Positions 1-6,000 of a stretch of 36,905 nt of DNA are shown here, in pieces. Source of the stretch: a virus (taxonomy: Duplodnaviria > Heunggongvirae > Uroviricota > Caudoviricetes); the IMG/VR virus record IMGVR_UViG_2645727604_000018; one strand, given 5' to 3'. A program made the position numbers. The number at the start of each line of letters is the position of its first letter. Position 1 is the stretch's first letter.

Positions 1-3000
1 ATGCCAAACGTGTTTACCGGATCATGCGCCAGAATGCGCTGTTGCTTGAGCGAAAACCTGCTGTACCGCCATCGAAACGGGCACATACAGGCAGAGTGGC
101 CGTGAAAGAAAGCAATCAGCGATGGTGCTCTGACGGGTTCGAGTTCTGCTGTGATAACGGAGAGAGACTGCGTGTCACGTTCGCGCTGGACTGCTGTGAT
201 CGTGAGGCACTGCACTGGGCGGTCACTACCGGCGGCTTCAACAGTGAAACAGTACAGGACGTCATGCTGGGAGCGGTGGAACGCCGCTTCGGCAACGATC
301 TTCCGTCGTCTCCAGTGGAGTGGCTGACGGATAATGGTTCATGCTACCGGGCTAATGAAACACGCCAGTTCGCCCGGATGTTGGGACTTGAACCGAAGAA
401 CACGGCGGTGCGGAGTCCGGAGAGTAACGGAATAGCAGAGAGCTTCGTGAAAACGATAAAGCGTGATTACATCAGTATCATGTCCAAACCAGACGGGTTA
501 ACGGCAGCAAAGAACCTTGCAGAGGCGTTCGAGCATTATAACGAATGGCATCCGCATAGTGCGCTGGGTTATCGCTCGCCACGGGAATATCTGCGGCAGC
601 GGGCTTGTAATGGGTTAAGTGATAACAGATGTCTGGAAATATAGGGGCAAATCCACCGATTACGAAGAAACCGCTGCTGTTCCATTGTTCCCATTCGCTG
701 AGAGAGAATCCTTTTGTTCCTCTGTTTTAATCATTGATGATAGTTAGAATGTTGGTAATATATTGTCCATATTTATTTGCTATGAGGAGAAGATAATGGC
801 AGGGAATAGGCAACATTTTATTCCACGTTTTTTACAAAGAGGTTTTTCTAACGAAAAAAATGGGAAGTATTTTACTAACTGGTATAGAAAAGATTGTTTC
901 AAGGAAAACATGATAGTAGAGAATATTGGTTTGGAAAACAAGTTTTATTCTCACTATGGCGATTCAAGCGTTGATAAAAAAATAACAGAAAACGAAACAT
1001 ACAGTTATTCACGCATACTTAATAGTTTAGTCGATGGGACTTACAACCTAGACAACAGGAAAGATTTAGCCGAGTTTATTTATCATATGGAGATTAGAAC
1101 AAAAAACTTAAGAGAAAACATGATAGATTCATGGGCATATTTTGGTGAGCAATTAAAAAACAGATTGCTAGACAAGGAAACTCTTATTGATTATTTCCAA
1201 AGAAATCCAAAAACAATCAAAGAATTACTTCAAAATGAGTTAAATAAACTACCAATACCAGCAAGTCTACATGAGCAATATAACTCCATGTTTTTTGATA
1301 ACGTTCAATTATGGCTACCAAATGCTGCAGAAAAGATGCTATCAACATTAGTTCCGAAGTTTGAGCAAGAAATAATATCAAAAATACCTGAAATAGTAAA
1401 AAAGGTTCAGTTAGATGTTTTGGTTTCATCTGAGGATAAGAAAAGTAATATTTATAAGAATATGCATTACAAAGTATTGAAAACAAATCAATCTTTGATT
1501 TTAGGAGATAGTATTGTAATCTTTGAAGTGTCTGGGGAACGAAAGTTTAAGCCATTCTATGAAAGTAATGATGATTTAAAATGTATATATATTCCATTAG
1601 ATTCATATTCGCTACTTTATGCAACGCCAAATCCAGAAGATAAACCAAACGTGGATGGTATTAATAAGGCTATAGCACAGTGTTCATTTGATTTTTTCAT
1701 TAGTAAATTTCATAGTGATGAATGCCAAATATTTCGAAGTGAGATTGGTAAAAATGCGTTTATAGTTACAACCGAATATATTGACGAAATTCTAAGCAAA
1801 ATAATAACAGGGAATTAAAATAGGATTACTTAATGCAGGAGTTAGTGTCTAACTCCTGAATATATAATTAACGCATAATACGTTATGATGGTAATAGTAT
1901 TTTTAATCCATCAAACCGCGAGAAGTCTTACTTGCGGTCTGACGAAAATCATAACGTTCCACAACATCACCCTTAAACCAGATATCCAGTGATTTAATGT
2001 GTGCCGTGCTGCTATTGGTCAACAGAGCAAGGCCCGGTATGTAGTTAGATAGTTGGCTTTCTCCCGTCATACTTGAGTAGTTCCACATCTCCTGTCCATC
2101 ATTCGTAGCGCGTGTCTGAGGCTCTCCCAAGGCAGCAAGAATTTCTTGTTGGGTTGTTTTTCCATTGACGATTTTAACTTTAACCGTCTGATGATTTTCA
2201 TCAGTTAGGGATTTATTACCATGAACGGTACAGCCACCAAGTGGTAATATGATAAAAATAGCAAGTAATAATTTTTTCATTTTTGTTCCATAAATAGATG
2301 AAAGGTGAGACTCAGAAAACATACTTTTTAAATACCAGCATCCATCGCTCGCAAAGTTCGTGATTTGAAGTGCTTTTATTTTTCAAGGGGACATTAACTT
2401 TCCACATGGGATTTTTAATATCATCGGTTAAAATATTTAGGCCAGACCGTTTATTAGCTGAAAGTTGTTCTCTCCAGTTAGCAATAGCCGCATTATTCAT
2501 ACCTCGTAATGTTCCATTGCCATAAAACTTACCCCCCTCTGAAAGCGTATAATTTATTTCTCGAATTTGATCAAAAGTATATGTGCTGTCTTTATCTTTA
2601 TTGAAAATACGGACAGTATGTTTTTGAGTATCAATTACAATACCTGTCTGCTGGCATTCATACGAAAGAATGTCGCCGTCCAGAACTTCCGTGAAGCTGT
2701 TGTAGTGTTTTTTCTTTTGTATATCCGCTGCGGTCATGATAATGACGAAGAGCACTACTAAAAATACGATACCTGTTGCTTCCACTCTTACTTCCTCCAT
2801 GTTAATGAGTTAAAGAGACTGAACCCGCTCACAGAGCTTTGCTACGTTTTATACGTCCTACAGCACCAAACTCATGGCATCGGTCTCGGCGTTGCAAGGC
2901 TATCAGAACTTGAAATTACGATCGATATAAAAGATCGATAATGAGTTATTGATAGATTATAGCGATTGAATGTGCGATATCGATCGGTGATTAATTGTTA

Positions 3001-6000
3001 TAATCGATCGAATATTTATTTATGATAGATGGAAGCTATTATAAGGTTGTTTTTGATCGTTTTAAACGATATGACGAGACGCTAAAAGAATTGAATCCTA
3101 TCAATTGGTTAAGCGGTGATTTTGCCATGTGATATCAGCCGGACCCCGCAACAACTCTAGCCCTGACCGGATTAGGTCAAAAATTTAGGCACTTTGATTA
3201 TCAGGATGGATAAGCAGATGAAGAAGATTTTACTCGTTGCTGGCGCAGCTCTGGCACTGGCGGGATGTGGTGAGAAAGGTGAGTTTGAGAAAGCGATTAA
3301 TGCCAAGATTGGGCAGGGCAAATACTGCTTCTCGCTGGATAACAATAACACCAGCTTCCCCATCCGTCTTGCCAAGCCACTACGTGATTCGACTGGCACA
3401 GGGACCAATTCAGTGATCCTCGACGGTTTTATTGAGCAGGGCCTGATGGTTTTTGAACAGGGCTATGACTCGAACGTATTAGGGATAACAGAGGAAGGCA
3501 AAAAAGCCAAAGTCTGGAGCACAGCAGACGGTGCCTGTGTTGGTCGTCGTGCTGTTGATGAGATTAAGGAATGGACGGAGCCGGGAAACGGTAATCAGAA
3601 AGTAGTTCGCGTGACTTATACATGGAAGTTGGTTGACGTTCCGGGCTGGATTGACAAAAAAGCCTTCGCCAGCGTTAAAGGAATGAATGATTCTGCTGAT
3701 GGTGCCATGAATCTTGTTAAAACCAGCAATGGCTGGAGAGCCAATTAACAGTTCCCTCTAAAGATCTGTGACGAGCATGGCTAGGGGCTTATGAGGGCGA
3801 GTTGCTGCCCTCATATGAATTTAATTTTTTCTTATTCATTCGTGAAGTTAACGAGTGTTAACTATATTTGCATTTGGCATTTTATTATATATATCTAAAT
3901 ATAATTTACCGAGCAAATATTTTTTATATTCTCTTTTGTCAAATCTTAATATACTACTTTCTGAGTTATTTTTGAAATATGATATTCCAGTAGATACGGC
4001 ATATTCAAGATTTAATTTGGCAGTTGCAAATTCTATTGCTTCTATTGTCATTTCTTGATATCTTTCGTTTATCAAAAAAGTATTTACTGTGTTTTTAATT
4101 GAAATATTTGTAGTATCGTAAGATATGTTTATTTTTATTTTTTCTGGTGATGAAATCATTCCGTCTATTAATGTTAAAACACCATCCTCATGAGTTAAAA
4201 CGAAATTTATAACTTCATCATCCCACAGTGGGTTTAAATGTTCATTTGCGAAGAAATCAATTGTGCCTTTAAGGCTTGAGTTACATGAACTACAACTTGG
4301 GATTAAATTGTTAATTACCAATGCAAGGTGAGGAAAGTCATCCTTACTATAAAAATGATCTAATGTAGGACGAAAACCGCGATTCTTTTTTTGTATCGAA
4401 AAAGCATATGCTTGATTGCAATACGGACATGTTCTGCTTATTGATTTTTTACATAGAGTATATGCATTCCATGATCCTGTTTTCCTAACAAACTTATTGT
4501 AATTAAAAATAGATCTTATTTCTTTGTCGAATTGCTTCGATATATCCGGCGTTATTGACAATCTGTGTTTGTACTCTCTATATATATCAATACTCTCCAA
4601 TATATCTTGTTTACCGGCAAGTATTAATAGGTGATGCACATCTAGAATAAATTTTTTAGCTTCGTCTCGTCCTTCAGAACTAGGAATGGATTTATTTAAA
4701 AAGTTGCATATCAAATTATTTAAATAATGTGTATGTAATTTTATTGCTTTTTCCCAGTTGTTTTTAATTGAAATAATCATATATGAAGACCTTCAATCCT
4801 TATGCTGCATAATTAAGCGTTCGATTTCGCTTTTTATTAGAGGGTTGTCTATATTATTTATAAGGTAATAATCTTTTTCAGTCAGTATTCTATTAGGTAT
4901 TTTGTCGATGATGGTTTCAATTTTATTTGTTGCAAATTCTCCAATGGTTTTAGTTCCAAAAGATTCATTTAGTAAAATATAAAGAGGAGATGCAAAACCA
5001 CTTAACGTAGCATTTTCAATTGGTAGTCTAGTTATAAAGTCTTTGGGAACGTCTGTGGCTAACAATGGAGAGTGCGAGGCTAGAATAAGTTGTAAATTAT
5101 CTATGCCCAGAGATGTTTTTAATGAGCCTAGCATTTTATTTAAATTAGAAATATATTTCCTTTGCCAATCGATATGTAAAAAAGCGTCCCCTTCATCTAT
5201 TAATAGTAGTATTGATCTGATACCTCTATCTGACAGTTTAGTAATAGAGTCAGAGATGGCGCCAATTTGAGCTAGAATAGCAATTTGCCCAGAACTCATA
5301 TCAGAAAAATCAATTTTAAAAATATCATTCAAATTGTATCTTGTTAATAACCTTTGTCCTTCGTAAGGGTCTATTTCGAATTCTAACCTTAAAGTTGATT
5401 CATTAAGTCTTGAATCCTTTATGATTTCATGGTTTTTTACCTCATATTTTATAATATTAAGTAAACTATCTATTTTGCTTTCACATTCTAAATATAATTT
5501 AGTCTCTCTGAGTTTTCTATTTGAACGGATGTTTAAATTTAAGTGTTTGTTTAATAATGGAATTACTACGTTATCACTGAACTGTTTTTTTGTACTTGCC
5601 CAATCTATTATGCTAAATATGGAAAAGAGTTTTTCTTCACCTGCGCGATGAAGTATTTCATCAATCAGATGCGCGGAGCAACGCTGCATAATAGAATCAA
5701 TTTCTGCTTGAATATTTTTATTGGTACTATATTTTATAGTGTCTGAATCGTCATTATCTATATTATCATCAATTTTTGCACGTAATGACAAAATATCAAG
5801 GAGACCGTGATTCAGTAGTATGCTGTTCTGATTAAGATCTTTATTATTTAAAGCGATATTAAGTATTAATCTTGCAACTTTGCTAATGTTTGTCATCTTC
5901 ATGGCAACAACTTTTGGATAAATATCAAAGTCAGATATTAAATCCTTGTATTCGATAAGGTCAAATACAGTATTTTTTCCATTCAAGCTTGGAGATGCGT

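Follow-up and report, generated by a model that had tools for sequence, protein, structure and literature searches.

The window, a stretch of 36,905 nucleotides filed in IMG/VR as virus record IMGVR_UViG_2645727604_000018, holds five GATC sites within 139 bp upstream of a lipoprotein gene that starts at 3218. The question that this locus raises is whether the cluster is a Dam-dependent phase-variation switch of the kind described at pap, agn43, opvAB and gtr, as a sequence-only reading had proposed. Our analysis supports that proposal in silico: OxyR sites are present, their layout is that of opvAB, and the region aligns with the opvAB and gtr switches. We consider it probable that positions 2920–3113 form an OxyR/Dam epigenetic ON/OFF switch of the opvAB/gtr type that drives the lipoprotein gene at 3218. 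The case is carried by the sites, their geometry, their selective conservation and their homology to two characterised switches.

A local cluster of GATC sites

The five sites lie at 2920, 2933, 2982, 3006 and 3055, exactly where the earlier reading had placed them. The region is divergent, as that reading also held, with genes for a DUF4755 membrane protein and a BamE-like lipoprotein on the minus strand on one side and the lipoprotein gene at 3218 on the plus strand on the other. The repeated TGATAGAT motifs are found at 2950 and 3023, 73 bp apart. The description of the sites as GATCGAT-type palindromes stands for four of them, which overlap ATCGAT (GATCGAT at 2920 and 2933, ATCGATC at 2979 and 3003), and does not extend to the fifth, which reads GATCGTT. 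The base that follows GATC is G at all five sites.

The segment has a GC content of 29%, from which simple arithmetic gives about 0.37 expected GATC sites in 139 bp; five is a strong local excess over composition. The window as a whole is poor in GATC (108 observed versus 130 expected), and nowhere else does it hold at least four sites in 139 bp. When 108 sites were placed uniformly at random, some 139-bp span received at least five of them in 6% of trials, and site counting alone is only suggestive. What sets the cluster apart from chance is its recurrence, because 47 distinct homologous modules, drawn from many genera, have the same GATC sites at matching offsets.

GATC clusters in AT-rich DNA also occur at oriC and P1 oriR, and a RepL-family protein is encoded about 4 kb away, which would fit a replication origin or a SeqA-sequestration element. 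This reading was rejected and we give it next to no weight. No DnaA box (at most one mismatch) occurs in 2501–3451, nor are such boxes enriched in the window, and a search for iteron-like direct repeats found none. The cluster moreover always has the same orientation and distance relative to the lipoprotein operon, and the module travels without repL in many loci.

Two tandem units of OxyR half-sites

The window was scanned with the classical OxyR consensus, ATAGnTnnnAnCTAT-N7-ATAGnTnnnAnCTAT, which scores 10 positions per half-site. The best full match in the 36.9 kb lies at 3003–3039 (17/20) and the third best at 3025–3061 (15/20), both inside the cluster region. The sole 10/10 half-site of the window (3025–3039) and one of its three 9/10 half-sites (2952–2966) are found here as well, and each TGATAGAT motif supplies the left arm of one of these two strong half-sites. 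The intergenic region was also shuffled 3000 times with its dinucleotides preserved; no shuffle attained 17/20, and three attained a 10/10 half-site. The suggestion that OxyR- or Lrp-like sites would overlap the GATC sites is thus borne out for OxyR (17/20 for a full site, 10/10 for a half-site), and we read the regulator as OxyR, not Lrp.

Six half-sites are arranged as two tandem three-part units with a 73-bp period. In the first unit the weak half-site A_I (2921–2935, ATCGATATAAAAGAT, 7/10) has one GATC at its left edge (2920–2923, designated GATC-0) and another at its right edge (2933–2936). The strong, GATC-free half-site B_I follows (2952–2966, ATAGATTATAGCGAT, 9/10), and then the weak half-site C_I (2983–2997, ATCGGTGATTAATTG, 5/10), which carries the GATC at 2982–2985 and overlaps the second unit by 4 bp. 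That unit consists of the weak half-site A_II (2994–3008, ATTGTTATAATCGAT, 8/10), whose right edge makes the GATC at 3006–3009, the strong, GATC-free half-site B_II (3025–3039, ATAGATGGAAGCTAT, 10/10), and the promoter-proximal weak half-site C_II (3056–3070, ATCGTTTTAAACGAT, 8/10), which carries the GATC at 3055–3058. The half-site centres are at 2928, 2959 and 2990 in the first unit and at 3001, 3032 and 3063 in the second, a spacing of 31+31 bp within each. Centre spacings of about 31–32 bp are those of reduced OxyR in the gtr and opvAB papers (PMC2909390, PMC3350482, PMC4856963). The weak half-sites have ATCG in place of the consensus ATAG, and it is this change that creates GATC.

The array shares its layout with opvAB

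The opvAB sequence was obtained from a blastn search of the module against a plasmid collection, which returned a Salmonella record (L053) carrying setB and open reading frames of 221 and 40 amino acids, that is, opvBA. The published switch is the upstream activating sequence of STM2209–STM2208 in Salmonella enterica (Cota 2012, 2016; PMC3350482, PMC4856963). On L053 our half-site scan recovers its published centres (−148, −116, −75 and −43) and scores (10, 8, 10 and 7), with a start site that we chose to fit the published coordinates. The record itself is CP075030.1, listed in PLSDB as plasmid pCFSAN022626 of Salmonella Abortusequi (301,781 bp); it bears the chromosomal genes setB, opvBA and yeiP and looks like a chromosome fragment mistyped as a plasmid. 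The plasmid collection also contains an E. coli chromosome, NZ_OL790696.1 (4.8 Mb).

The two arrays agree closely in geometry. GATC sites 2933, 2982, 3006 and 3055 are separated by 49, 24 and 49 bp, versus 50, 23 and 50 bp in opvAB, and are the equivalents of opvAB GATC1, GATC2, GATC3 and the promoter-proximal GATC4, respectively. These four have the same symmetric arrangement as in opvAB, two lying in weak half-sites and two just upstream of strong ones. The strong half-sites are 73 bp apart in both loci (9/10 and 10/10 in the window, both 10/10 in opvAB), B_I being the counterpart of OBSA and B_II of OBSC, and every distance from a GATC to a strong site in the window is within 1 bp of that in opvAB. 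At both loci each strong half-site has a weak, GATC-bearing partner about 31–32 bp downstream; here the partners are C_I and C_II, each 31 bp from its strong site. C_I is equivalent to OBSB in position and sequence (OBSB GATCGATTTTAATTAT, window GATCGGTGATTAATTG), and C_II is the counterpart of OBSD (OBSD GATCGATATAACCAGT, window GATCGTTTTAAACGAT). At both loci the proximal weak site (C_II or OBSD) abuts a −35-like hexamer, here that of a candidate promoter, with a 17-bp spacer.

Sequence similarity extends beyond this geometry. A blastn comparison of the module with the opvAB upstream region gave E=4e-3, and a profile of 47 family modules, run against the opvAB region, scored 53.6 bits in the direction in which opvAB is transcribed and 33.5 bits on the other strand. 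With the same profile the best of 1000 dinucleotide shuffles reached 7.9 bits for opvAB and 4.8 bits for gtr.

The loci also differ. The genes downstream of the opvAB switch encode the O-antigen chain-length modulators OpvA and OpvB, whereas those here encode envelope lipoproteins. The fifth GATC, at 2920, has no opvAB counterpart, and C_I is a weaker site than OBSB. Finally, opvAB has been reported as limited to one chromosomal site in Salmonella enterica, with no relatives elsewhere, whereas the module described here is found on mobile islands and plasmids in many genera of Enterobacterales. The opvAB switch functions in E. coli (PMC6677893), and the Dam and OxyR proteins of E. coli therefore suffice for a switch of this type.

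Relation to gtr, agn43 and pap

When the module was compared with phage genomes by blastn, the gtrA–int intergenic region of 13 P22-like Salmonella phages was matched, which is the gtr phase-variation region (Broadbent 2010; PMC2909390). The gtr region of phage SE1 (L052) has GATC pairs 13 bp apart and half-sites spaced at 32+32 bp, which read ATCGATATAAACGAT (8/10), ATAGTTTAAAGTTAT (9/10) and ATCGTTGTTACCGAT (8/10). It is near-identical to window positions 2919–2945, and A_I is near-identical to the promoter-proximal gtr half-site ATCGATATAAACGAT. The 47-module profile scored 28.0 bits on gtr.

The plan of gtr, a strong half-site flanked by two weak, GATC-bearing ones that share it, is present twice here, with spacings of 31 bp versus 32 bp, and B_I is the counterpart of gtr OxyR(B). 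GATC-0 lies 13 bp from the GATC at 2933, like the gtr pairs, and the window sequence TACGATCGATATAAAAGATCGATAATG matches gtr TTTGATCGATATAAACGATCAATAATG. The candidate leftward promoter described below also has the gtr geometry, with a GATC inside its −35 element. In contrast, gtr is a single unit with two GATC pairs, whereas two units overlap here and the pair is kept at A_I alone (2920/2933); the other gtr-equivalent positions read AATT or GATA. The promoter-proximal pair of gtr overlaps the promoter and gives OFF, whereas the proximal site here abuts the −35 of the candidate rightward promoter as in opvAB, where the corresponding state is ON. On these alignments the region is homologous to both the opvAB and the gtr switches, and its sequence is most aptly seen as a pair of overlapping gtr-type units in an opvAB arrangement.

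The resemblance to agn43 (flu) would lie in the competition of OxyR and Dam at GATC sites that fall within ATCGAT-like OxyR contacts. The three GATC sites of agn43 share one OxyR site, which is located downstream of the start and serves for repression only; agn43 is not known to have alternative pairs of half-sites. By this description the present locus differs, with five GATC sites spread over six half-sites and 150 bp, upstream of the gene and of its candidate promoter. The module resembles pap in having two alternative sets of GATC-bearing regulator sites, which would lead to mutually exclusive methylation patterns. The pap regulator is Lrp with PapI, whereas the motifs here all fit OxyR, their layout is not of the Lrp type, and no pap-type regulator gene is annotated in the locus (no Lrp matrix scan was made).

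A conserved module of Enterobacterales

The window is identical in sequence to the chromosome of E. coli O127:H6 E2348/69. There it belongs to an integrative element associated with tRNA-Asn that encodes a MobQ relaxase, TraD, a type IV pilus with a shufflon, RepL and integrases. This element is the IE3 of a Ler microarray study (PMC3891560) and is a ROD21-like island; the lipoprotein locus corresponds to SEN1982–SEN1984 of ROD21, an excisable island of Salmonella Enteritidis. The intergenic region is matched in 681 of 5426 complete E. coli genomes (about 12%), always on the chromosome.

Fifty loci, one genome per species across Enterobacterales, were chosen by alignment of lipoprotein homologues. 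An invariant core, GATCGnTnnAAACGATATGAC, was present in 45 of these 50 and always faced the lipoprotein operon; in one lipoprotein subfamily the module lies one gene further upstream, ahead of an additional lipoprotein gene of about 190 codons. The same orientation was found in four other E. coli contexts, in ROD21, on a Yersinia plasmid and in 11 IMG/VR contigs. Hosts of the module include Salmonella (ROD21), Klebsiella, Yersinia, Pectobacterium, Dickeya, Brenneria, Citrobacter and Enterobacter, among others. Homology between loci begins exactly at 2920 and stops near 3113, and the 5′ untranslated region is variable.

The 47 distinct modules have a mean pairwise identity of 75% (minimum 60%), and conservation within them is selective. 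Consensus positions of the six half-sites are 96% conserved versus 68% for the free (n) positions (Mann-Whitney p=1e-10), and GATC columns are 98% conserved versus 79% for other columns (p=4e-6), with p-values that are descriptive only, the loci compared being related and not phylogenetically independent. The two strong sites taken together show 95% versus 54%, and B_I alone shows 95% versus 55%. C_II scores 8/10 in all 47 modules and its 10 consensus positions are invariant, while the family median is 7/10 for A_I and 8/10 for A_II. The GATC is retained in 40 modules at 2920, 46 at 2933, 44 at 2982, 45 at 3006 and all 47 at 3055; at 2920 the other seven modules have AATT.

These figures bear on two simpler accounts of the locus. 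According to the first, this is an ordinary oxidative-stress promoter under OxyR, with no heritable states; the GATC sites arise incidentally from half-sites that resemble ATCGAT, and methylation plays no part in regulation. The presence of OxyR sites is clear, and the strong sites, too, are bordered by a G at −1 and a C at +16 (GATAG...CTATC), so that part of each GATC could reflect an OxyR preference. Yet the C that makes the GATC is kept in 44–47 of the 47 modules although an A would improve OxyR binding, and the maintenance of this consensus-breaking base argues for selection on GATC itself. The 31-bp spacing is the one described for reduced OxyR at gtr and opvAB, whose regulation does not depend on oxidation, six half-sites far exceed what a simple activator needs, and two proven methylation switches are homologous to the array. 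We regard a plain OxyR promoter as improbable.

The second account is an AT-rich region silenced by H-NS and Ler, or an array for an island regulator, in which the OxyR-like motifs are coincidental. A GC content of 29% in a horizontally acquired island, the response of IE3 genes to Ler in a microarray (PMC3891560) and the H-NS-family proteins encoded beside the module in related islands would all fit. Conservation nonetheless tracks the OxyR consensus position by position (0.96 versus 0.68), and the shuffle controls rule out an effect of composition. As a full explanation this seems highly unlikely, although H-NS silencing could act as an additional layer on an OxyR/Dam switch.

Beyond the half-sites, a block of 30 nucleotides on the plus strand (3084–3113, AAAAGAATTGAATCCTATCAATTGGTTAAG) is almost invariant in the 47 modules and overlaps the candidate −10 element and start. 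It is longer than a promoter needs and could serve to bind another protein or form part of a 5′ leader. An AATTGA-N6-TCAATT inverted repeat at 3090–3107 was considered as an operator and is unsupported, one of its arms varying across the family.

Cargo genes and candidate promoters

The conserved cargo is the plus-strand gene at 3218–3748, which encodes a lipoprotein of 176 amino acids with the lipobox LAGC; the annotation of some genomes names it 'SEN1982 family lipoprotein'. Searches of Pfam, PHROGs and NCBIfam gave no function for it beyond the lipobox, and an AlphaFold2 model built on a 28-sequence alignment is of low confidence (mean predicted local distance difference test score 51). Downstream of the module various combinations occur of the 176/183-residue lipoprotein, a lipoprotein of about 190 residues, a 95-residue lipoprotein, a 91-residue zinc-ribbon membrane protein and a multi-pass membrane protein of about 215 residues. 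The cargo thus always consists of small envelope proteins, as with Ag43, gtr and opvAB. The lipoprotein of about 190 residues gave sub-threshold matches only, to a tRNA_anti-like OB fold and to a Sie-like PHROG (E=3e-3). Members of 183 residues are often misnamed 'DNA-directed RNA polymerase subunit beta' (L054 4896–5450; P0043, P0055, P0060, P0113 and P0119). In a screen in S. Enteritidis, as cited in the ROD21 papers, transposon mutants of SEN1982 colonised mouse organs poorly.

A candidate rightward promoter lies on the plus strand at 3071–3099, with the −35 element ATGACG (3071–3076), a 17-bp spacer and the −10 element AATCCT (3094–3099). C_II abuts this ATGACG, an arrangement collinear with OBSD and the GTGAAT-17 bp-TAAAAT promoter of opvAB. 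Across the 47 modules ATGACG is near-invariant, and AATnnT is conserved in the manner of a −10 element. From this position transcription would start near 3106, and half-sites would then be centred at about −43, −74, −116 and −147. Two alternative −10 elements, TATCAA at 3099–3104 and GTTAAG at 3108–3113, were dismissed, having either a variable −35 region or a final T that is not conserved. Three minus-strand hits of the promoter scan inside half-sites (−10 TATAAT at 3038 and 2956) were disregarded, as their positions are not conserved in the family.

The divergent operon occupies 1903–2800 on the minus strand and encodes the DUF4755 membrane protein (2312–2800) and the BamE-like lipoprotein (1903–2280/2322). 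The latter, of 125 amino acids, matches the uncharacterised phage family phrog_3135 (E=3e-32), and its relatives are phage- and island-borne. A candidate leftward promoter is present on the minus strand at 2897–2925: its −35 element TCGATC (2925–2920) contains GATC-0 and is followed after 17 bp by a TG-extended −10 element, TAGCCT (2902–2897), which would place the start near 2890. The SE1 gtr promoter (TCGATC, 17 bp, TGcTACACT) has the same geometry and fits the published gtr start (PMC2909390). The leftward promoter is conserved in the closest relatives (L059, L002 and L003).

These observations raise a further alternative, in which the DUF4755/BamE-like operon, read from a leftward promoter of the gtr kind, is an additional or even the main target of the array. 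OxyR on A_I and B_I would then repress leftward transcription, and OxyR on B_I and C_I would release or activate it. This bidirectional or gtr-like logic overlaps with a rightward switch and does not exclude it. Besides the promoter shared with SE1 gtr, where the published OxyR(BC) site overlaps the promoter (PMC2909390), several features speak for it. Both by blastn and by profile, gtr is matched best when the module is read leftward, and these matches extend into the promoter spacer; a leftward promoter resembling those of sigma-70 lies beside GATC-0 in most loci. GATC 2920 also co-occurs with the divergent gene. A BamE-like/DUF4755 homologue is found beside 33 of the 56 modules with enough left flank, and every one of these 33 has GATC 2920; among 58 distinct modules 8 have AATT in its place, and none of the 8 has the divergent gene (Fisher p=3.5e-4). 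Against this, the loci cease to be homologous precisely at 2920, groups of loci differ in their left neighbour and in the layout of the leftward promoter (12-bp indels, −35 elements at different offsets), and 15 modules have GATC-0 with no divergent BamE-like/DUF4755 gene. We hold this alternative to be possible but on the unlikely side. Across the family the rightward lipoprotein operon therefore appears to be the conserved target of the switch, and leftward control of the DUF4755 operon is a plausible addition, which would make that operon a possible second target.

The Ler microarray found E2348C_2111–2113 to be activated by Ler and the divergent E2348C_2114 to be repressed (PMC3891560). 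These genes cannot be mapped with certainty to the open reading frames at about 1900–3750 of the window, and the Ler result was not used as evidence. Should they correspond to the DUF4755/BamE-like operon and to the lipoprotein gene, Ler would have opposite effects on the two sides of the switch.

Proposed mechanism

By analogy with opvAB and gtr we infer OxyR binding, the methylation patterns, the identity of the ON state, the promoter position and bistability, as follows. An OxyR tetramer would bind a strong half-site and one of the two weak half-sites that flank it, upstream or downstream, and would shield the GATC of the occupied neighbour from Dam. The free neighbour would be methylated, and this methylation would stop OxyR from moving onto it. 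Two self-perpetuating and mutually exclusive methylation patterns would result, with switching possible only just after replication. Under the polarity of opvAB, OxyR in the proposed ON state would occupy B_I+C_I and B_II+C_II, leaving 2982 and 3055 unmethylated and 2920, 2933 and 3006 methylated, and OxyR on C_II, which abuts the −35-like ATGACG, would activate transcription. In the proposed OFF state OxyR would occupy A_I+B_I and A_II+B_II, with 2920, 2933 and 3006 unmethylated and 2982 and 3055 methylated. A clonal population would thereby be split into lipoprotein-ON and lipoprotein-OFF lineages.

Several points weigh against an opvAB-like rightward switch, in addition to the relatedness of the loci compared. 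The OxyR scores come from the classical 10-position consensus, not from a calibrated matrix, and C_I scores 5/10 versus 8/10 for OBSB. A consensus promoter scan found no promoter on the plus strand, and the candidate −10 element AATCCT is weak. The module is nearly palindromic: gtr aligns with it best when it is read leftward, and a single-sequence alignment to opvAB is also slightly better in the opposite orientation (88 versus 75). The polarity of ON and OFF is the least secure step and is uncertain, because promoter-proximal OxyR gives ON in opvAB and OFF in gtr; a shift of the true start site by a few bp would favour the gtr logic.

Neighbouring genes on the island

The MobQ relaxase gene (6422–7579, minus strand) is annotated in E2348/69 as a pseudogene with an internal stop, and two integrase genes further along the island are degraded too. 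The island may thus have lost mobilization in this strain. Directly downstream of the lipoprotein gene, on the minus strand at 3848–6313, are genes for an AAA ATPase (4793–6313) and an HNH protein (3848–4780). The pair matches both components of the PADLOC candidate defence system PDC-M62 (A, E=5e-23; B, E=1.5e-41), with a weaker likeness to PtuA/PtuB of Septu, and probably constitutes an island-borne anti-phage system. At the left end of the window (24–644) an open reading frame contains the catalytic region of an IS3-family (IS2-like) transposase; RefSeq has only a frameshifted 'hypothetical protein' and another hypothetical protein there. In other E. coli islands an H-NS-family gene lies a few kb from the module (L055 229–633, L056 1497–1904), and the module adjoins TIR-domain, macro-domain and ApeA (HEPN) defence genes. 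Islands of this type unite xenogeneic-silencing paralogues, defence systems and a putative epigenetic switch.

Implications

Reviews list agn43, gtr and opvAB as phase-variation systems controlled by OxyR and Dam, and the gtr paper names STM2209 alone as another such locus (PMC2909390). A literature search, incomplete in coverage, returned no report of Dam-dependent, OxyR-dependent or phase-variable control of SEN1982, of ROD21-type islands, of IE3 or of these lipoproteins. If the proposed switch is real, the locus would be a fourth OxyR/Dam phase-variation system. Population heterogeneity at SEN1982 could then confound bulk measurements of expression and virulence for ROD21-type islands. A trade-off between phage resistance and virulence is a feature of known OxyR/Dam switches, and a phase-variable surface lipoprotein on a mobile island is therefore a candidate for bet-hedging.

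A broader and rather unlikely proposal is that the module is a mobile bidirectional cassette. One array of six half-sites and five GATC sites would set two divergent envelope operons, in the manner of opvAB on the right and of gtr on the left through GATC 2920 in the −35 element. It would spread among Enterobacterales on integrative mobilizable islands and plasmids, and would belong to a wider family from which opvAB, and perhaps gtr, derived. If the switch itself is real, the opvAB-type architecture would be a widespread, horizontally mobile regulatory cassette, to which both the opvAB and the gtr switches would be linked.

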